DNA of 8,037 bases from an uncultured Pleurocapsa sp. (GCA_937884735.1 CAKZYI010000074.1:1-8037); one strand, 5' to 3'; shown: positions 1-8,037, numbered from the stretch's first letter. The notes: a model not told the origin generated them from the letters alone. Translations and numbers: made by a program.

Positions 1-658
1 ATCTGATGCCTTAAAGCTTCTGCCACCCAATGACGGTAGACCTAAGTATTCTTTCCGTCGCTGGGCTGAAGAGCGTAATGGCTGGAGTTTTATTGGATCT
101 AGGGGAGTAGGAGAAAGTGCAGCCCTTCGCCCTATCGTAAGTACCTTCTTAGATACTGCATTTAACAAGCTGCTAGAAAATGAGGAGGCAAAACCTTGCT
201 GGGTATTTATAGACGAACTTGCCTCTCTCCAGCGATTACCAAAAATTAAAGATGCGATGACCAGAGCCAGAAAGTACAACTGTAGACTGTTACTGGGCTT
301 TCAAGGTCGCTCTCAATTGGAAGCCCTCTACGGCAAACAAGCCGAAGTGCTAATGAGTTCGACTGACGCGAGAATTTTCCTTAAGACTACGGAATATAGT
401 GCCAGTGAATGGATTGCTAATAATATCGGCAAACCAGAGCGTCAAAGACAGGTTGAGTCTTTTACTTCTAGCTTACTCAGTAATGGCAGAGATTCTATTT
501 CTACTAGAACTGAGACGAAATCGGAACATTTGATACTACCGAATCAGATTCAGAATCTTAAAAAGCTTTCTGGCTATCTTCGGTACGATGACTACGCTAC
601 GTTCTTTCGGTTTCCTTATCCAGAGATAGAAAAGAAAAATGTTGTTGCTGGTAGTTGA
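1..658 (+). CDS. Type IV coupling protein (TrwB/TraD/VirD4-family ATPase), C-terminal part; 5' end lies outside the window
   Basis: Frame 2 is open from nt 2 to TGA 656-658; the ORF track shows it only from the internal Met at 257. The translation has the T4CP motif order: Walker B-like CWVFIDELASL (from ~197), then RKYNCRLLLGFQGRSQLEALYG (269-334, the G-x-Q-x3-QL-x3-YG box), then SSTDARIFLKTTEYSASEWIANNIG. The same motif order recurs in the 550-aa ORF on the minus strand. Confidence 0.8.
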   Translation, partial: SDALKLLPPNDGRPKYSFRRWAEERNGWSFIGSRGVGESAALRPIVSTFLDTAFNKLLENEEAKPCWVFIDELASLQRLPKIKDAMTRARKYNCRLLLGFQGRSQLEALYGKQAEVLMSSTDARIFLKTTEYSASEWIANNIGKPERQRQVESFTSSLLSNGRDSISTRTETKSEHLILPNQIQNLKKLSGYLRYDDYATFFRFPYPEIEKKNVVAGS

Positions 659-693
659 AACGAATAAATAGTCATATATCTCAAAACTAGAGA

Positions 694-723
694 ATGGCTT
701 CATAGATTGGCAACTAAAGCCAT
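694..723 (+). terminator. Weak hairpin downstream of the T4CP gene (possible terminator)
   Basis: ATGGCTT (694-700) pairs with AAGCCAT (717-723), a 7-bp stem with a 16-nt loop, 36 nt after the TGA. The nearest T-run (~745-749) is about 20 nt away, so this is not a canonical intrinsic terminator. Confidence 0.2.
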
Positions 724-855
724 GAACATAAAGTTCTATAGTATTTTTGACTTTAGTAATCTAACCTAACGAATTAAATTCTTGCCATACAATCACATCA
801 ACCAATAGAAACTACTTTCAGGTTTAAATCACAAACGATAAACCATTTCCAAGAA

Positions 856-887
856 TATAATTGATTATGTTTTTTTAGTATTACAAT
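856..887 (+). promoter_or_regulatory. Candidate sigma70-type promoter elements for the NLR module
   Basis: A perfect TATAAT lies at 856-861. A second pair is TTGATT (861-866) with TACAAT (882-887), spacer 15 nt. The second -10 ends only 7 nt before ATG 895. No purine-rich SD lies upstream of the ATG. Confidence 0.25.
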
Positions 888-894
888 CAAATTC

Positions 895-1347
895 ATGGAA
901 CCAATTACAATAACTACAGTCGCTATTGCAATGTCGACAATTTTTTCTGTTAAAGCTTCTGAAAAAACTGGCGAAAAATTTGGAGAATTCTTATCAGATC
1001 TAGTTTCAAAATCAGCTCTAAAACTAAGTAAAAAATCAACTCTAATTAAAAACTTATTACAAGCGGAAGAAGCAGAACCCCTTCAAATAAGCGGAGCAAT
1101 TCTAGAAGTAAAACAAATTGCCGATCGCGATCCAGAAATAGCAAAAACTATTTCAGAGATAAATACAAAAGCCAAACAAGAGCCTAATTCTCAGTTTCAA
1201 TCTAAAATTAATCAAGTTAGGTTAGAAGCAGATAAGTTAGATAATCAACAACCAGCAATTCAAAATCTAACAGAGTTAGCCAACAAAATTGGAGTTGTCA
1301 ATCAAGCTACAACTATAAATCAAACGATTAACCAAAACATATTTTGA
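895..1347 (+). CDS. Hypothetical 150-aa helical protein with an N-terminal hydrophobic helix and a Q/N-rich C-terminal tail; candidate Bell/HeLo-like effector module of the downstream NLR
   Basis: ATG 895 to TGA 1345-1347. Residues 3-19, PITITTVAIAMSTIFSV (901-951), are hydrophobic. The middle is K/E/Q-rich and helix-like. The tail is ELANKIGVVNQATTINQTINQNIF (1273-1344). It shares frame 1 with the NB-ARC ORF. The functional call is by architecture only. Confidence 0.6.
   Translation: MEPITITTVAIAMSTIFSVKASEKTGEKFGEFLSDLVSKSALKLSKKSTLIKNLLQAEEAEPLQISGAILEVKQIADRDPEIAKTISEINTKAKQEPNSQFQSKINQVRLEADKLDNQQPAIQNLTELANKIGVVNQATTINQTINQNIF
1345..1347 (+). other. Single in-frame TGA separating the 150-aa ORF from the NB-ARC/TPR reading frame
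   Basis: 895, 1345 and 1495 all fall in frame 1 (each is 1 mod 3). TGA 1345-1347 is followed by C (TGA-C). The 49 codons 1348-1494 contain no stop and no ATG, GTG or TTG. Confidence 0.9.
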
Positions 1348-3783
1348 CAGAATTCGTCTGAAGGGAAACAGACAAAGTTTAATCCCAAAAAATTTACTTC
1401 TGAACGTGGCTCTAGTAATTTCGTTGGTCGGGAAACGGAATTACAAAACCTACACAAACACTTACAAGAAGGAAATAGTATTTCTATAGTAGGAATGGGA
1501 GGAGTTGGAAAAACAGAATTAGCTACTCAATATGCTATTAAGTACAAATCCTATTACGATGCAATTCTTCGGTTTAATTTTACTTCTAATGACTTGTTCA
1601 CGCAGGTACTAAGATTTTTCAAATTCACTCTTGGGTATCAAGTTCCTCAAAAAACAAGAGAAGGAATATTAAATGAAGAGCAACAAGTTAAGCATTGTTG
1701 GGATAATTATCCTAATCTAGATTTACCAGTTTTAGTTATTTTTGATAATGTAGATGATGCAGAAAAGTTAAGAAAAATTATTCCTAACGATCAACAGTTT
1801 CGATGTGTTGTTACTACTCAAAAGACAAGATTAGACAGCAAACTTATTATAGATATTCCAATAAATATTCTTTCATTAAAAGAAGCAGTAACTTTTTTAC
1901 AATTACTATTAGGTGCAACCGATAAACGTATATCCAGTGAGCGAACAAAAGCAGAAAGCATTTGTAATTTTCTCGAATGTTTACCTTTAGCGATTGAGCT
2001 AGTTGGGGGATATTTAGCAGGAGATCCCTATCTATGTCTTGGCGATATGATGGAAAAATTAGAAAAAGAAAAATTAAACCATACAGCCTTCATCGATAAA
2101 GATAAACTTACTATAGGTGTCCGAGTTGCTTTTTCTTTAACCTGGTCTAAACTAAGCTCTAATGCAAAACAGCTTGGAAAATTAATTAGCTTATTTCCAG
2201 CAAAGAAAATTCATTGGGACTATGTTCAGCTTGTAATAGAATTCCCAACTAAAGAAGAAGAAGAACTTCCTATATGGGATAATAAATGTATAGATGAAGG
2301 GAAACGAGAATTACATAGAAGAAATATTATTGTTATTCAACAAGATAGTATAGAAAGCTATTATCAGGTTCATTCTTTACTAAGATATTATTTGCAAGAA
2401 CAATTAACAGAAGAAAATGAAACAAATTTAATTTTAATCAGTATCTTTGTAAGGTTTATAGAATATAATTCTAATGCTATGAAGCTAAAAATGCTTCATA
2501 CAAAAAAAACATATTTAAAAGAAATAGCTTTTTATATGGAGAACATAGCACAAGAATTATTATTTGAAATCAATCAAAATAATGAGACTGGAGTAATTTA
2601 TTTAAACAGAATTAAAAACGATCAAATAATTTCAATATTTTTAGGAATAGGCTCATTTTATTTAGTAGAAGGATTATATGAATCAGCAGAATTATGGCTA
2701 GATAGATCCATTAATGCTTGCAAGCTTCTATCTTTAGAAAATAAGGTAAGTATGATACATAGCCTAAATGCTTTAGCTATGCTTTATGTTAATCAAGGAA
2801 AATATTCTGAAGCAGAATCGCTTTTTGATAAGCTTTTTACCATTGCAAAAACTTTTCCTCCTGAAGAAGATTTAAATATAGATACGTGTTGGGATAATCT
2901 GGCTTTACTTTATCAATATCAAGGAAGAGAAAAAGAAGCTGGAAGTTTGCTTTCAAAGTCTTTAGGAACGGTGCAAGATATTGAAGTAGCAGATAGTCCT
3001 ATTCTAGCGAGAAGAAAAAACAATTTAGCACATTACTATATGACTATAGGAAAGTACGAAGAAGCTTTACCCCTATTTATCGAGTCATTGGAAATGAGAC
3101 AACGATTATTTAAAGGAGAAGATCATCCTGATATTGCGATTAGTCTAGATAATTTAGGTTTGCTTTACTATTATCTAAGAAAACCAGAGCAAGCTGAACC
3201 TATTTCTTATCAAGCCTTAGAAATGAGAAAAAGACTGTTTGATAAAAATCATCCTGATATTGCCAGAAGCTCACATAACTTAGGTTTAATCTATTCTTAT
3301 CTAAGAAAACCAGAACAAGCCAAACCTTTGTTTATCAAGTCATTACAAATAAACAAAGCTAATTTTGGAGAAGCTCATCCTGATATTGCAACTTCTATGG
3401 ATAGTTTAAGTAACATATATAAATTTCAGGGAAACTGGAAAGAAGCTGAATATCTTTGTTCAAAGTCATTGGAAATGAGACAGCGATTATTCAAGGAAGA
3501 TCACCCTAGCAAAGCTAGAAACTTGATGAATTTAGCTTTGCTATATGAACTAATATGGGGTCTGGAAGAAGCTTATTTCTATATTGAACAGGCTTTAGAA
3601 ATGGCAGATAGAATTCTTGAAGCCAATGATCCTTTAAAAGCGGATATTCAAAATAATTTCACACGTTTAAGTAAAAAGCTTGCCTTTTTTCCATTAAGAA
3701 AGCGAAGATTTTTATTAATAATAATATTAGTCTTGATAATAGTATTATTATCTTTTTCATTTAAAAAATTGTTAGTTAATTGA
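1348..3783 (+). CDS. NB-ARC + TPR STAND NTPase (bacterial NLR-like / Avs-like sensor) with a C-terminal TM tail. It has no start codon of its own upstream of the P-loop and may be a pseudogene or a recoded continuation of 895-1344
   Basis: FVGRETEL lies at 1420-1443. The P-loop G-MGGVGKT is at 1492-1515, and the ORF-track Met 1495 sits inside it. Walker B VLVIFDNVDD is at 1729-1758. The GLPLA-type motif CLPLAIELVGGYL starts at ~1978 (LPLAI = 1981-1995). The MHD-like VHSLLRYYL has its His at 2371-2373. About 7 kinesin-light-chain-type 42-aa TPR units follow. Stop is TGA 3781-3783. Confidence 0.85.
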   Translation, partial: QNSSEGKQTKFNPKKFTSERGSSNFVGRETELQNLHKHLQEGNSISIVGMGGVGKTELATQYAIKYKSYYDAILRFNFTSNDLFTQVLRFFKFTLGYQVPQKTREGILNEEQQVKHCWDNYPNLDLPVLVIFDNVDDAEKLRKIIPNDQQFRCVVTTQKTRLDSKLIIDIPINILSLKEAVTFLQLLLGATDKRISSERTKAESICNFLECLPLAIELVGGYLAGDPYLCLGDMMEKLEKEKLNHTAFIDKDKLTIGVRVAFSLTWSKLSSNAKQLGKLISLFPAKKIHWDYVQLVIEFPTKEEEELPIWDNKCIDEGKRELHRRNIIVIQQDSIESYYQVHSLLRYYLQEQLTEENETNLILISIFVRFIEYNSNAMKLKMLHTKKTYLKEIAFYMENIAQELLFEINQNNETGVIYLNRIKNDQIISIFLGIGSFYLVEGLYESAELWLDRSINACKLLSLENKVSMIHSLNALAMLYVNQGKYSEAESLFDKLFTIAKTFPPEEDLNIDTCWDNLALLYQYQGREKEAGSLLSKSLGTVQDIEVADSPILARRKNNLAHYYMTIGKYEEALPLFIESLEMRQRLFKGEDHPDIAISLDNLGLLYYYLRKPEQAEPISYQALEMRKRLFDKNHPDIARSSHNLGLIYSYLRKPEQAKPLFIKSLQINKANFGEAHPDIATSMDSLSNIYKFQGNWKEAEYLCSKSLEMRQRLFKEDHPSKARNLMNLALLYELIWGLEEAYFYIEQALEMADRILEANDPLKADIQNNFTRLSKKLAFFPLRKRRFLLIIILVLIIVLLSFSFKKLLVN
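2740..3630 (+). repeat. Tandem 42-aa (126-bp) TPR units inside the NLR gene
   Basis: The (D/N/A)HPDIA box recurs at 3121, 3247, 3373 and 3499, exactly 126 nt apart. TTATCTAAGAAAACCAGAGCAAGCTGAACCT (3171-3201) matches 3297-3327 at 28/31 nt. GTCATTGGAAATGAGACA is identical at 3084 and 3465. Confidence 0.85.
3709..3762 (+). other. Predicted C-terminal transmembrane tail anchor of the NLR-like protein
   Basis: RKRR (3697-3708) precedes FLLIIILVLIIVLLSFSF (3709-3762), followed by KKLLVN and the stop. This is a basic flank plus 18 uninterrupted hydrophobic residues. Confidence 0.55.
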
Positions 3784-3834
3784 ATTATTTTATAAATAAA
3801 GAACAATGATATAAATACATTAAGAAATTGAGTC

Positions 3835-3853
3835 AAAAAAAAGCGATCGCTAG
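3835..3853 (-). repeat. HIP1 octamer GCGATCGC inside a 10-nt palindrome, followed on the minus strand by T8 (at best a weak terminator for the minus-strand operon)
   Basis: GCGATCGC lies at 3843-3850 and the palindrome AGCGATCGCT at 3842-3851. An A8 run at 3835-3842 gives U8 after the palindrome on the minus-strand transcript. The stem would be only 3 bp around a 4-nt loop. Confidence 0.4.
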
Positions 3854-3926
3854 AGAACTGTGACCGCCCATTAACTACTTAACTACCTCTCAAACTCAAT
3901 AACATCATTATCTTCATCGTCATCTT

Positions 3927-4691
3927 CTACAGGCTTGAGATTTTGCACTCCAAAAGCTTCCTCTCCCCATTGAAGACCCTGAGTGGGTTTTTGCGCTCTG
4001 ATTTCTTCGTACCCGCTTTCATTCGATGTGCTGAATCTACAACCTGTTGGCTAAATCTGCCCGATTGTTTGAATTGAGCTACCATACTCAGGGCATCTGC
4101 GTTGTCTATAATCTCGGAAACTGCATTATCCACAACGCCTTGAACGAACTGCTGTGCTGCCTGACCAACGACTTGGTTAAACCCCTGCTGCATTGCTAAA
4201 TCTTCTTCTGGTGTGGGCGTTGTTGGTTGAGGTGAACGAGCATCTTGATGGGGTGGTTTAAATCTAGAATCAGTATTGGCTGAAGAACCTTGGGAATTGC
4301 CAGTGTAGGGAGTAATTGAGCCAGAATCTTGTTGATTGGTCTTGGCTTGAGCCACTTCTGCTTCAATCTCTTTGAGGCTCATTCCGTCATCAAATTTCTC
4401 GCGCCAATAGTCCAGGTATTCTATATCTAATGGGGTGTATGTCTTCTTATGCTCTGAGCCAGTAGCATTAATAAACTTGTTTAGGGAGGCTTTCTTAACG
4501 TGATATCGTCCCTCTAGTCCTTCCGCTCCTTCTTTTGGTAGTCCGTTTTCGGGAATGCTCTTCTCGGAATAGTTAGTCATGATATTTAGTTGGTTGTAAA
4601 GAATGTAGATAATGAAACTAAGCACCAGGACGTGAATTAGGGTCACATCCCGATTTAGGTAATTTGAGGTCGCACCTAATAAAAAAATCAC
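3927..4691 (-). CDS. Hypothetical protein with a MerR-like HTH/wing segment, a Q/P/S/T-rich low-complexity linker and a possible N-terminal TM helix
   Basis: GTG start at 4691 overlaps the upstream TGA by 4 nt (GTGA, 4688-4691). An alternative ATG start is at 4580 (MTNYSEK). ASLNKFINATGSEHKKTYTPLDIEYLDYWREKFDDGMSLKEI aligns by eye with the 68-aa upstream protein. VTLIHVLVLSFIIYILY is hydrophobic but present only with the GTG start. Stop is TAG 3927-3929. Confidence 0.6.
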   Translation of the reverse strand: MIFLLGATSNYLNRDVTLIHVLVLSFIIYILYNQLNIMTNYSEKSIPENGLPKEGAEGLEGRYHVKKASLNKFINATGSEHKKTYTPLDIEYLDYWREKFDDGMSLKEIEAEVAQAKTNQQDSGSITPYTGNSQGSSANTDSRFKPPHQDARSPQPTTPTPEEDLAMQQGFNQVVGQAAQQFVQGVVDNAVSEIIDNADALSMVAQFKQSGRFSQQVVDSAHRMKAGTKKSERKNPLRVFNGERKLLECKISSL

Positions 4692-4894
4692 TCAACTTTT
4701 TTAATGCGCTCCATTTGCTTGATTTGTTTTTCGGTATAACCGCCTTTTAATAAGGCTCGGTACTTACAAAATCTCTGAAATTCACTATCTGAATAGGAAC
4801 GTTTTTTGGTGGGAAGATTGGCTAATGCCAGGGTGCGGTTGACGGTGGCATAACTGATGGAGAAGGTTCTCATTAATTGGTTTTTGGTATACAT
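4688..4894 (-). CDS. Small MerR-like / excisionase-like helix-turn-helix DNA-binding protein (68 aa)
   Basis: ATG at 4894. FSISYATVNRTLALANLPTKKRSYSDSEFQRFCKYRALLKGGYTEKQIKQM follows the MerR N-terminal pattern: an HTH, then R-x-Y-x3-[DE]-h, then G-x3-[EK]-x-I. It begins 12 nt after the T4CP-like gene stop. Confidence 0.6.
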   Translation of the reverse strand: MYTKNQLMRTFSISYATVNRTLALANLPTKKRSYSDSEFQRFCKYRALLKGGYTEKQIKQMERIKKVE

Positions 4895-4906: not shown

Positions 4907-6559
4907 TTATTTACGGCGATGGGAATCGTTGTGGAGAATGTCTTCGACCATAATTTCGACGATAGTTGTGACAAAATCCCAGACACTTTCGGCAAAAGGA
5001 AACTTGGCAAAACGTTTCATGAAATTGGCTTTGGCATCGGACGAACGAAGTTTTTGCAGGAGGTCAAAGGAAAACTGCTGGGGTGAAAAACTGTTTTTTG
5101 GTCTGGTTAACTTCAAACGAGATTTTTTCTTGGTGTAGCTGGCGCGGATAAATGCTTTCCCAGTGGATTTTGGCTTGAGCTTTTCTATTTCCTCACTGGA
5201 GATGTGGCATTTGTAGATACCGCCCCAGTTGGCAATGGTTCGGGCAAAAAACTCTACCCCAAAGGATTTATCGGCTATCCTGAGCTTGAATAAGTCAGAA
5301 GTAACTAAATAGGGGCGTAATGCCTTATGACGACTGATGGAACGCCCCTGACTGGTTAGAGATAGGGAAGATTCTTGGACGTATCGCTCTCCTACCTGTT
5401 GCGTAACCCATTTGGCACTATCGCTAGAAGCAGGAGTAAAGTAGACCTGAAAGCCACAGTTACCAAGAATGGCATTAGCTTTTTCCTTGCCATAGATTTG
5501 AAACATTGCCGATACGTCTTGCAGGACAATGGATGCGCGAAATCCTTTTGAAGTCAAAAATTGCAAAGCTACATCCAGTTTTGGCAGGGGTTTCCAGACA
5601 GGTAGCTCATCTGCACTAAAGAAGATAATCTTGTCACTTCTGTCTTCTTGACTGCCGATATAGCCCACCAAAGCTTCAAAGATAAATCTGACGATGGGGC
5701 TAGTGCTGTTCATGGTTTGGAGAGAGGCACTAAAGACGGTTACTACATCTTCTTCCCCAACTATGTCTTCGTAAGAGATCCACTGACTAGGTGGGGTATT
5801 ACGCTGGAGTTCGGCACAGGCTCGTAATTGGGAGACTGACGTATTTAACTGTGTCAGGATGCCAAATTTAGTATTAGCTCCCCCTTCATCTCCCAGCAGT
5901 TTGTCGGCTATTTCTTTGCTGGCGGGACATAGGGATAGGTATTCGATTAAATCTCCGATAGGTAGGGAACTGATATCAACAAAGTCATGGATGCCCCAGG
6001 TATTATCTTTGAGGTAAATCAGACATTGAATAATGGAGATCGCAACCTCCTGGGCAGACAACGCCCAGAATGGCTCTCCCTTATCGGGTACAGGAACAAT
6101 GATTGCTACCAGAGCTTTTATTAGCAGGGGATTGCCATCAACCATTCTGCCTACGTCAATCGCACCACTGCGAGCATCTTCTAGTTTGATAATATTGAGC
6201 TTAATTCCGCATTCATCGCAGAGAGGTTCAACCCAAGACAATAAGTCGCCTTTAGCATCGAGCAGAATCAGATTCTTGATATAGTCTGTATCAACCTTAA
6301 TTAATGACTGAAGAAATTGATTGTACATTAGGCTCTTACCAGACCTAGTTATGCCGAGCCACAACTGGTGAGAGCGGAGTTGTCTGAGGTCGAGCATTTT
6401 GCCGATTAACGAAACTACATTACGGTCGTTTCGTGGTGGTTCATCGCCCAAATGCGGTTGGCGATATTTAGCCTCTTTTTTGGCTTGGCTGCGCTGTTTT
6501 CTGCTCTTTCTGCGCTGTTCTAATTTATGAAATTTTGGTTTGCCAAATCCTTTGAACAT
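4907..6559 (-). CDS. T4CP-like (TraG/VirD4/TraD-family) P-loop ATPase with a basic N-terminus and no TM anchor
   Basis: Walker A GITRSGKS is at 6355-6332 and Walker B IIFFSADELPVW at 5629-5594. Next come SIVLQDVSAMFQIYGKEKANAILGNCGFQVYF (Q-x5-Q-x-YG box) and TPASSDSAKWVTQQVG. The first ~65 aa are K/R-rich (KPKFHKLEQRRKSRKQRSQAKKEAKYRQ) and contain no hydrophobic segment. Confidence 0.75.
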   Translation of the reverse strand: MFKGFGKPKFHKLEQRRKSRKQRSQAKKEAKYRQPHLGDEPPRNDRNVVSLIGKMLDLRQLRSHQLWLGITRSGKSLMYNQFLQSLIKVDTDYIKNLILLDAKGDLLSWVEPLCDECGIKLNIIKLEDARSGAIDVGRMVDGNPLLIKALVAIIVPVPDKGEPFWALSAQEVAISIIQCLIYLKDNTWGIHDFVDISSLPIGDLIEYLSLCPASKEIADKLLGDEGGANTKFGILTQLNTSVSQLRACAELQRNTPPSQWISYEDIVGEEDVVTVFSASLQTMNSTSPIVRFIFEALVGYIGSQEDRSDKIIFFSADELPVWKPLPKLDVALQFLTSKGFRASIVLQDVSAMFQIYGKEKANAILGNCGFQVYFTPASSDSAKWVTQQVGERYVQESSLSLTSQGRSISRHKALRPYLVTSDLFKLRIADKSFGVEFFARTIANWGGIYKCHISSEEIEKLKPKSTGKAFIRASYTKKKSRLKLTRPKNSFSPQQFSFDLLQKLRSSDAKANFMKRFAKFPFAESVWDFVTTIVEIMVEDILHNDSHRRK

Positions 6560-6614: not shown

Positions 6615-7904
6615 CTAAGAATCTTTATTGAAGTCACCTAGATCGGTTATGCTGCCGTCAAGAGAGCGATTGATACTCGCAATTTCTGCCTTAAAATCGT
6701 TGATTTCTGATTCGGCAAGGCTTTGTTCTTCATTGAGATTCAAAACTAAGCGTTTGAACTGAACGCTGTCATCGCTATAAGAGCCTTTCTGTCTGATTTT
6801 CAGTAGATTTTCGCGGATGAAGGAAATCAGGAATTTACGATTTACGATTTTGGTAGCGAGTAAGTCTTTTTTGAGTTTGAGTACCTTGAGCTTGGTGGAG
6901 GGAAAAGGGATGCGCTCCGATCGACGAATCTTGAGATTTTCCGCTTCTTCCTCAGCTTCAATCCGTTCTTTTTCTGCTTTAAATGTTTCTAAGAAAGCAT
7001 CGGATATTTCTTGAGAATCCCTGGCTGCGGTCATCTCTCGATAAGCCTGTTCGGTAATGGATGTACCCCTGTAGGCTTCTCGACCTGTGAGTTCGTCTAG
7101 AAAACCATTAATTGCCTCAATTTTTGCCCTTAGTCGGGGAATATCGATGCTATCGAGGATTTCTTGGTACTTTTGGCAGATTTTTTCACTGGCTTCATCT
7201 TTACCAACCATTGAAAAACGCAGATAGCCGATAGTTATGGGCATGGCGAAGACCAAAGCACTTAGGGCAATGGAGATAGCAGTTTCGCCACTGTTAAGGA
7301 CGTTAACCATCACTACCTCAGATATCAGTACCCCAATACCAGACATTATCGCGATCTTAACTGTCTTATTAAGCCGATAGTCTGCGTGGACTTTATTAAC
7401 AGTTTTGATGAACCCCTCAAGTTGAGACACTGTGAGAGGGCTGGTAACTTCTGGAGGGTCTAGTTCGGAACGTCCTCCTGCTGCTTCTACCTTTTCAGAC
7501 TCTAAATCCTTGATCTTTAAACGATAATCTTGGGAAAAGTGAACGATAGTGAGAATTTTGCTAATGCAGTACTCGATTATAAATACCAGAACAAAGGCGA
7601 TTCCTACTATCACAATTAGGTTGTCTTGACCTTCTTTGGTAGCTTGGCTTTGGACGATTTTGGTATTGAAAATCGCTGCCACTGCCGTTGCGACGATGAG
7701 AATTATTTCACTGAGAGCATTTATCTTGGCATAGTAGGCAGGAATACCTTCGATACAAGCATCGGCTCGTCCTTTTTCCTTGGCAAGACTCATCACCTGG
7801 GGTTTGACCTGGATCAGTTCAAACTGGGATTGGGAAGCGATGTTTCTGGCATCAATATCGGGTATCGCGACAGTTGTTTTGGTTCTTTTATTTCTTCTAC
7901 TCAT
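6615..7904 (-). CDS. Hypothetical membrane protein: two 2-TM hairpins followed by a long coiled-coil-like C-terminal region
   Basis: Hydrophobic segments are LSEIILIVATAVAAIF, LIVIVGIAFVLVFIIEYCI, IAIMSGIGVLISEVVMVNVL and AISIALSALVFAMPITIGYL. The C-terminal ~190 aa are E/K/R/L-rich. The ATG at 7904 is preferred: the ORF-track start 7940 is a TTG, and the ATG overlaps the stop of an upstream open frame (ATGAGTAG). Confidence 0.65.
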   Translation of the reverse strand: MSRRNKRTKTTVAIPDIDARNIASQSQFELIQVKPQVMSLAKEKGRADACIEGIPAYYAKINALSEIILIVATAVAAIFNTKIVQSQATKEGQDNLIVIVGIAFVLVFIIEYCISKILTIVHFSQDYRLKIKDLESEKVEAAGGRSELDPPEVTSPLTVSQLEGFIKTVNKVHADYRLNKTVKIAIMSGIGVLISEVVMVNVLNSGETAISIALSALVFAMPITIGYLRFSMVGKDEASEKICQKYQEILDSIDIPRLRAKIEAINGFLDELTGREAYRGTSITEQAYREMTAARDSQEISDAFLETFKAEKERIEAEEEAENLKIRRSERIPFPSTKLKVLKLKKDLLATKIVNRKFLISFIRENLLKIRQKGSYSDDSVQFKRLVLNLNEEQSLAESEINDFKAEIASINRSLDGSITDLGDFNKDS

Positions 7905-8037
7905 GATTTTGGGTGGTAGTGGTGTTTTGAGGTGTTTCAATTACGTGGCGATCTCGAATTCTGTCGATTTCATCAAACACGGCGGTAGCTCTGGAAGTGA
8001 AGAAGAAATCGTACTGGGAGAGGGTAGCGTTTAACTT
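7897..8037 (-). CDS. Possible 3' end of an upstream operon gene (partial, hypothetical)
   Basis: The minus-strand frame is open from the window edge to TAG 7899-7897: ...KLNATLSQYDFFFTSRATAVFDEIDRIRDRHVIETPQNTTTTQNHE*. It overlaps ATG 7904 of the next gene by 8 nt, which is typical operon coupling. It is absent from the ORF track because it has no Met. Confidence 0.3.
   Translation of the reverse strand, partial: KLNATLSQYDFFFTSRATAVFDEIDRIRDRHVIETPQNTTTTQNHE

Follow-up and report, generated by a model that had tools for sequence, protein, structure and literature searches.

A conserved in-frame UGA between a Bell-type effector and its NLR sensor points to probable programmed stop codon readthrough in cyanobacteria

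How is a sensor protein made when its gene offers no credible place to start? The question is raised by positions 895–3783 of an 8,037-nt stretch of DNA from an uncultured Pleurocapsa sp. (GCA_937884735.1 CAKZYI010000074.1; the whole stretch is referred to here as the window), where a small effector-like open reading frame (ORF) is followed, in the same frame, by an NB-ARC/tetratricopeptide repeat (TPR) sensor of the NOD-like receptor (NLR) type. The comparisons described below lead us to regard this region as probably a single cyanobacterial NLR-type gene of cell death or immunity, from which two proteins would be produced by programmed readthrough of the UGA at 1345–1347.

An ATG at 895 opens a 150-codon ORF (ORF1) that this TGA closes, and the frame of ORF1 is then open again for 811 codons, from 1348 to 3780, up to a TGA at 3781–3783. 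Frame analysis and a codon check confirm what a preliminary description of the locus had pointed out, namely that ORFs 895–1347 and 1495–3783 share a frame with TGA 1345–1347 as the sole intervening stop, that the 49 codons between them (1348–1494) include no ATG, GTG, or TTG, and that a protein begun at Met 1495 would begin within its own P-loop (Walker A motif GMGGVGKT). A 2.9-kb frame broken by one stop is far longer than chance would allow. TGA serves as a normal terminator here, in that it closes the upstream type IV coupling-protein (T4CP) gene at 658 as well as the NLR frame at 3783, while tryptophan is encoded by TGG eight times within the latter. The standard genetic code therefore applies, and an alternative code in which TGA would specify Trp or Gly was rejected, since TGA ends both the neighboring genes and the NLR frame itself.

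The junction in other cyanobacteria

In its database record (P0001), the downstream ORF is given a start at the P-loop Met, as are P0022, P0047, P0048, P0050, and P0113, a systematic artefact of the in-frame TGA. In these entries, and in P0149 and P0159, the NLR starts either at the Met within GMGGVGKT or at a different internal codon, and the upstream halves are filed separately as hypothetical proteins of 146–150 aa. On the contig that carries P0022 (L003; 51% identical), a 149-aa upstream ORF in the same frame stops at a TGA in the homologous place, after which come the same 49 codons. The ORF1 homologues first retrieved were all ORFs of 150–154 aa, and on every readable contig among L004–L008, a Xenococcus metagenome-assembled genome included, the ORF1 homologue runs to a TGA in frame with NB-ARC/TPR. 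L003, L004/5/6, L007, and L008, all 50–62% identical to the window, thus share with it an in-frame TGA at the homologous site.

With an ORF1 profile, 108 further loci were fetched from species-representative genomes and metagenomes and their junctions analyzed by script; 106 distinct junction contexts, from Nostocales and Pleurocapsales genomes and metagenomes, were compared. A junction was counted as frame-linked if the frame stayed open for at least 100 codons after the stop or to the contig end. The frame is open past the stop in 70 of the 106, in most of them for several hundred to 1,300 codons, and the stop is TGA in 69 of these 70, the exception (L058) being a premature TAG inside the Bell domain. 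In the 69 linked junctions the TGA is followed by C 58 times, by A eight times, and by G three times. The remaining 36 contexts end in TAA (20), TGA (11), or TAG (5), and five of those 11 TGA codons belong to decayed copies of the linked type with a nearby second stop (L046, L074, L076, L090, and L113). Setting aside these five, along with L002, which is the true end of a contiguous gene, leaves an unlinked set of 30, mostly two-gene loci, in which the frame closes at once and the stop is TAA or TAG in 24 and TGA in six. TGA versus other stops is accordingly 69 to 0 in the linked set and 6 to 24 in the unlinked set (Fisher p = 1e-17, shared ancestry not being corrected for).

Linked junctions occur in Xenococcus, Nostoc, Anabaena, Halotia, Scytonema, Brasilonema, Tolypothrix, Calothrix, Aetokthonos, Stigonema, Iningainema, and Hassallia, and at least five unrelated modules are found downstream of them. 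NACHT+HEAT+NCC-H follows at 41 linked junctions and NB-ARC+TPR at 17, the window included, the others being NB-ARC+APAF1_C, NACHT alone, and a PsbP-like membrane protein. In the last arrangement, seen in two Nostoc loci (L050 4001–5101, and L052), the Bell domain, motif, TGA, and hairpin lead in frame into a membrane protein of 221 codons that has a PsbP_2-like domain, in place of a STAND (signal transduction ATPases with numerous domains) NTPase; NLRs are therefore not the only proteins to which the junction cassette is joined. One metagenomic contig (L111) has tandem TGA-linked Bell-NLR genes, at 1074–3620 and 4001–4741, with differing NB-ARC modules.

What amino acid such a junction would carry, were it read through, is suggested by relatives in which the two halves are contiguous. 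When 1.84 billion representative proteins were searched with a conceptual translation across the junction, the stop being written as X, three contiguous proteins that retain the junction were found, and all three have Trp at the stop position: P0041 (...NQEF-W-LYSPERERVK), P0157 (...STFNF-W-QHSSDGERTK), and P0209 (...LPKD-W-LNSSERDRTK). The Trp codon of P0041 is TGG in L001. For the NACHT-type junction, no protein spanning both halves was found among 5.8 billion protein clusters, the 43 matches reaching a coverage of at most 47%. With TGG so rare and TGA so common at this site, TGA is strongly preferred over its one-step neighbor. Near-cognate tRNA-Trp is known to place Trp at leaky UGA codons, as in the Q-beta A1 protein and in B. 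subtilis. P0041 is the only full contiguous TGG relative; it has NB-ARC and DUF7779 with no TPR match, and it may be truncated, since a DDE transposase gene comes next (L001/L002, 2253–4277 and 4426–5574).

Missing starts and an RNA element after the UGA

The 49 codons that lead from the TGA to the P-loop Met evolve as coding sequence. The ratio of nonsynonymous to synonymous substitution rates (dN/dS) is below 1 on both sides of the TGA, and for these codons it lies between 0.15 and 0.78 in eight pairwise comparisons with homologues; their synonymous divergence is lower than that of the flanking segments. Such a combination of dN/dS < 1 with reduced synonymous change fits a coding sequence overlaid by RNA constraint. 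No start is conserved within this stretch or beyond it. Across the linked junctions, the distance from the TGA to the first in-frame ATG, GTG, or TTG ranges from 0 to 146 codons, the codon that most often follows the TGA is CTA, and in 41 of 64 the first ATG is reached only at Walker A or past it. A Shine-Dalgarno-like GGGGAG in the hairpin loop was considered as an internal ribosome-binding site and rejected, as no usable in-frame start comes after it; the AUG that follows GGGGAG in the Nostoc group is out of frame and has no spacer.

Nucleotide conservation past the stop exceeds what the protein would require, the wobble G of the third codon, TCG, being conserved at 99% and several other third positions at more than 90%. 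A hairpin, S1, of 5 bp begins 8 nt past the UGA (Table 1). In an alignment of the 69 junctions (A2), 98.8% of cells are paired, and compensatory double changes are seen in three of the five pairs: U:A to C:G in 16 sequences, G:C to C:G in 33, and C:G to U:A or G:C in 7. The window itself has a U:A pair where most sequences have C:G. When, as a control, the 3' partner is slid by 1–3 columns, pairing drops to 27–62%, and RNAalifold independently predicts the exact S1 helix. A covariance model of the junction matches junctions only in 711 kb of fetched loci, with no match in two-gene loci. A scan of the surroundings of the UGA against Rfam, families of the selenocysteine insertion sequence (SECIS) included, gave only noise.

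A second stem, S2, may form between the G-rich loop of S1 and a conserved CCC 10–13 nt downstream, in a register that is one column off in the window relative to the alignment. The geometry of S1 and S2 fits an H-type pseudoknot, an assignment we make tentatively. In addition, the nucleotides of AAAGUUAA, which follows the hairpin (A2 columns 39–47, window 1374–1382), are conserved although the encoded residue varies, and the codons found there (TTA, TCA, CCA, GAA, and GCA) all keep their final A, a hint of an RNA signal that reaches past the 5-bp stem.

Table 1. Features of the region and the evidence for each, in window coordinates
Feature	Position	Strand	Evidence
Bell-type helical effector domain, residues 1–122, N-terminus MEPITITTVAIAMS ("MEPIS" hydrophobic helix)	895..1260	+	motif, homology, AlphaFold2 (AF2) model
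C-terminal Q/N/G/V/I-rich motif QNLTELANKIGVVNQATTINQTINQNIF, 28 residues, single copy in the locus	1261..1344	+	alignments
In-frame UGA followed by C, proposed readthrough codon decoded as Trp	1345..1347	+	TGA in all frame-linked junctions; TGG in contiguous relatives
Start-less 49 codons: linker and STAND N-terminal helix and strand, FVGRETEL at 1420–1443	1348..1494	+	codon check, dN/dS
8-nt spacer from UGA to hairpin	1348..1355	+	alignment A2 columns 10–17
Hairpin S1: GUCUG 1356–1360, loop AAGGGAAA, CAGAC 1369–1373	1356..1373	+	covariation, RNAalifold
Tentative pseudoknot stem S2: loop GGGA 1363–1366 with UCCC 1383–1386, A-rich conserved linker AAAGUUUAA	1363..1386	+	pairing
NB-ARC NTPase, Walker A GMGGVGKT 1492–1515	1432..2019	+	Pfam PF00931, E = 4.9e-11, post-TGA residues 29–224
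TPR_10/TPR_12 repeat sensor region	2677..3486	+	Pfam TPR_12 E = 1.5e-55, TPR_10 E = 1e-52
C-terminal hydrophobic helix FLLIIILVLIIVLLSFSF (3709–3762) and true stop TGA 3781–3783	3709..3783	+	translation

One gene for effector and sensor, and competing accounts

The description of ORF1 as effector-like is borne out by its two parts. Its N-terminus reads MEPITIT..., relatives opening with MEPISITAVATAI, and a MEPIS N-terminal helix has been described for the Bell, Hell, and Bab membrane-targeting cell-death domains (Ibarlosa et al., 2024, bioRxiv 10.1101/2024.11.07.622273). ORF1 is moreover homologous to the 132-aa effector gene (L009 3282–3680) of a two-gene pair in Fischerella NIES-4106. By this motif and this homology we identify it as a Bell-type domain. 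The AF2 model is of an all-helical domain with a predicted local distance difference test (pLDDT) score of 80 and a disordered tail. No match to ORF1 was found in Pfam, PADLOC, or NCBIfam, nor did an ORF1 profile match PDB sequences significantly. The tail motif QNLTELANKIGVVNQATTINQTINQNIF fits in composition and position the description of bacterial amyloid signaling sequences (BASS) given by Dyrka et al. (2020, bioRxiv 10.1101/2020.01.06.895854). No second copy of the motif is carried by the sequence after the TGA (QNSSEGKQTKFNPKKF...).

The NB-ARC and TPR assignments of the downstream half also hold, PF00931, TPR_10, and TPR_12 all being matched in the post-TGA frame; with an NB-ARC domain that has a Walker A motif and is followed by repeats, the post-TGA protein is a STAND NTPase of the bacterial NLR kind. 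Because the NB-ARC/TPR frame closes with a hydrophobic helix, FLLIIILVLIIVLLSFSF, the sensor may be membrane-anchored. This helix is kept in the closest TGA-linked relatives (L003, L008, and L057) and is absent in L067, L073, L080, and L086.

Since the sensor part has neither a start nor a motif of its own, it would be made, and coupled to the effector, only through readthrough. Most ribosomes would stop at the UGA and release an abundant 150-aa protein consisting of a Bell-type membrane-targeting domain and the amyloid-like motif, whereas a minority would decode the UGA as sense, most likely as Trp via near-cognate tRNA-Trp, and continue into a Bell-motif-linker-NB-ARC-TPR product. The weak UGA-C context and the hairpin (possibly an H-type pseudoknot) 8 nt on would aid this, and the leak rate would set a low ratio of sensor to effector. 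Upon ligand-induced oligomerization of the rare long form, its motifs would cluster and act as a template for the abundant short form, whereupon the Bell domain would be activated and the membrane damaged, by analogy with two-gene Bell/NLR pairs, HET-S/NWD2, and Bab/Agp. The readthrough itself, its efficiency, the inserted amino acid, the amyloid templating, and the role in defense are all things we infer. Low-level UGA readthrough, one of three explanations put forward in the preliminary description, is nonetheless the one favored by the conserved TGA, the frame linkage, the hairpin, and the lack of starts. By the marks of recoding, the locus presents a stop and context conserved in diverged homologues, a start-less downstream frame under selection, and a covarying 3' structure at fixed spacing.

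Several points weigh against this reading. The case for readthrough is purely comparative, and many of the junctions are closely related Nostoc copies, paralogues or orthologues, so that junction counts overstate the number of independent events. S1 is short, its covariation could be due in part to linked amino-acid preferences (Ser/Thr versus Pro/Val), and the minimum-free-energy fold of the window sequence alone chooses a different local pairing. S2, although ~90% paired, shows little covariation. The hairpin is retained in the TGG variant L001 (P0041), which scores 58.6 bits with the junction model, and may therefore have another role. As to the effector, a Foldseek search of the AF2 model against the PDB gave no significant match and did not recover the Bab structure 9H9V, the best matches being Mcl-1/Bcl-2-like and Rx-CC helical bundles at E > 0.8; the tail motif resembles an amyloid signaling motif as judged by composition and position. 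Finally, an ATG or GTG adjoins the TGA in 4 of the 69 junctions, where reinitiation is therefore possible.

These four junctions bear on a quite different account, in which the UGA is an ordinary stop and effector and sensor are two separate proteins, the NB-ARC/TPR part arising by reinitiation or from an internal start (Met 1495 or a near-cognate codon). Known Bell/NLR pairs are indeed often tightly coupled or overlapping (Dyrka et al., 2020), and gene callers already start the downstream parts at internal Met codons. Independent genes, however, need neither strict frame linkage nor exclusive use of TGA; no start is conserved past the TGA; at ATG 1495 the sequence AGGA abuts the codon directly, with zero spacer; and an NLR so made would lack the signaling motif that its two-gene relatives bear N-terminally. 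We therefore consider separate synthesis unlikely, including the reinitiation that had been proposed for this locus. The earlier criterion, by which readthrough would fall if orthologues had a normal start codon and ribosome-binding site for the NB-ARC gene, applies only to the separate two-gene architecture (L009), where the NLR has its own motif and the frames are unlinked; no such start is conserved in the frame-linked family. The remaining proposal, that an all-in-one Bell-NLR gene was lost in this strain by a recent TGG to TGA mutation, or that the stop is an assembly or sequencing error, draws on the single transition that separates TGA from the TGG of the contiguous relatives, on the fact that the window is a short metagenomic contig, and on the decayed family copies with second stops noted above. 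It is refuted, or as nearly so as makes no difference, by the occurrence of the same TGA in 69 distinct junctions from many genera with mostly intact downstream frames, by the dN/dS below 1 on both sides of it, and by the compensatory U:A pair through which the window keeps its hairpin. The stop is family-wide and not unique to the strain, and the window, with 811 further intact codons, holds the one stop and no other lesion.

Two further accounts take the UGA as a sense codon and differ as to what decodes it. Selenocysteine is suggested by a hairpin with loop G residues ~18–20 nt past the UGA, which is roughly the geometry of a bacterial SECIS. The lack of an Rfam SECIS match, the presence of Trp and not Cys in the contiguous relatives, and the position of the site in a linker, with no plausible redox role, make this hardly credible, and tRNA-Sec was not found in 61 cyanobacterial genomes (PMC6933170), which also counts against it. 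Alternatively, the long form could depend on an opal-suppressor tRNA (e.g., phage-encoded) or on impaired release factor 2 (RF2), the UGA then acting as an infection-gated switch. This is compatible with everything that supports readthrough, and UGA-only usage fits a single decoding agent, yet the conserved cis hairpin suggests intrinsic stimulation, and no suppressor tRNA with a UCA anticodon was reported in the same 61 genomes (PMC6933170), which counts against such dependence; we hold it to be very unlikely. A related idea, which we advance as a decidedly doubtful one, is that the UGA ties the amount of sensor to the state of translation termination, so that infection-linked changes in decoding would arm or trigger cell death. 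Phage opal-suppressor tRNAs, depletion or inhibition of RF2, or altered tRNA-Trp would each, for example, yield more of the full-length Bell-motif-NLR, and the gene, were this true, would serve immunity by detecting interference with the decoding process. Intrinsic, structure-assisted readthrough remains the reading that we prefer.

Known systems, genomic setting, and meaning

The most telling comparison is with a two-gene pair. In Fischerella NIES-4106 (L009), the 132-aa ORF1 homologue ends ...LAKLADKIGQVVMPGGTGNIENMSF-TAA, and a separate NLR (P0019; 42% identical to that of the window) lies ~320 nt past the effector and begins MPEDSGKFADKIGAFAAPGANVNIGTQII. The motif is on both effector and NLR in this pair, whereas the window has one copy, 5' of the UGA. 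The closest stand-alone NLR homologues all begin with the motif (MPEDSGKFAEKIGVYVAPGGQASIGTQII), ~25 residues before the position of the window TGA.

Both two-gene and all-in-one forms of Bell-BASS/BASS-NLR systems have been described (Dyrka et al., 2020), and L009 is a textbook case of the former. Like those pairs, the window family has a ~120-aa MEPIS-type helical domain with a ~25-aa Q/N/G/V/I-rich C-terminal motif, is found in filamentous or multicellular cyanobacteria, and has an NB-ARC/TPR or NACHT NLR collinear with the effector and directly downstream of it. Unlike them, it has one motif copy, an NLR with neither a start nor its own motif, an effector stop that is always TGA with the NLR in frame, and a conserved hairpin after it. 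The Bab/Agp system of E. coli, an amyloid-signaling abortive-infection system whose role in phage defense has been shown experimentally (Ibarlosa et al., 2024), likewise combines a small Bell-related MEPIS domain with a C-terminal amyloid motif and is activated by a sensor with the same motif; it differs in having two genes, two motif copies, a TPR-GreA/B-PIN sensor in place of a STAND NTPase, and no recoding. The predicted readthrough product has the architecture of an all-in-one Bell-NLR, that is, a helical effector, a nucleotide-binding oligomerization domain, and repeats. Avast2 and bNACHT02/11/23, antiphage NLRs with a MEPIS N-terminus as cited by Ibarlosa et al. (2024), differ, as do the all-in-one Bell-NLRs, in that they lack an internal stop, release no effector of its own, and mostly have no amyloid motif.

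In fungal HET-S/NWD2 and other NLR/amyloid pairs, as proposed here, a short amyloid motif common to both partners allows an NLR to act as the template for a helical, pore-forming effector. These pairs differ in being eukaryotic, with separate genes, the motif at the extreme NLR N-terminus, and no attached effector domain. For the stop signal itself, the parallels are viral. In Q-beta, the UGA between coat and A1 is read as Trp, and in gag-pol of murine leukemia virus (MuLV), a UAG is followed by an 8-nt spacer and a pseudoknot. A leaky stop between a major short and a minor extended product, UGA read as Trp (as we propose), the 8-nt spacer, and a downstream structure are features shared with one or the other. 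Here, the genes are bacterial immune genes on chromosomes and mobile elements, the stem is of only 5 bp, and the function of the signal is putative. The terms "stop codon" and "readthrough" are not present in the texts of Dyrka et al. (2020) and Ibarlosa et al. (2024), and a full-text literature search gave no account of readthrough in cyanobacterial or bacterial NLR genes. The components, Bell/BASS-NLR signaling on the one hand and UGA readthrough with a 3' structure on the other, are known; their combination appears to be undescribed.

As to its surroundings, the NLR locus is flanked by genes for TraG/TrwB-type type IV coupling proteins, one at 1–658 (+), which runs off the window start, and one at 4907–6559 (−). 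Beside the latter are ORFs at 3927–4691 (−; 254 aa) and 6615–7940 (−; 441 aa), neither with a Pfam or NCBIfam match. Guanine-plus-cytosine (GC) content is ~30% at 501–4000 versus 40–46% in the flanks. With its low GC and its location between two coupling-protein genes, the NLR gene looks like horizontally acquired cargo in a conjugative element. Near-identical DNA was sought in plasmids, with no match.

If the readthrough is real, several things would follow. This would be a widespread case of structure-assisted, programmed stop codon readthrough in bacterial cellular genes; to our knowledge, nearly all known examples of such recoding, selenocysteine and pyrrolysine aside, come from phages and eukaryotic viruses. 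Many "tetratricopeptide repeat protein" or "NACHT domain protein" entries in the databases, which begin at an internal Met and often inside the P-loop, would regain their true N-terminal half, now filed as a hypothetical protein of ~146–150 aa. There would be a third NLR/amyloid architecture, standing between the two-gene and the all-in-one forms and, judging from the junctions compared here, widespread in cyanobacterial chromosomes. In it, both partners in templating would come from a single gene and so bear an identical motif, the ratio of sensor to effector would be fixed at a low value, and the limits on autoactivation of bacterial NLRs, along with their coupling to pore-forming effectors, would become testable.

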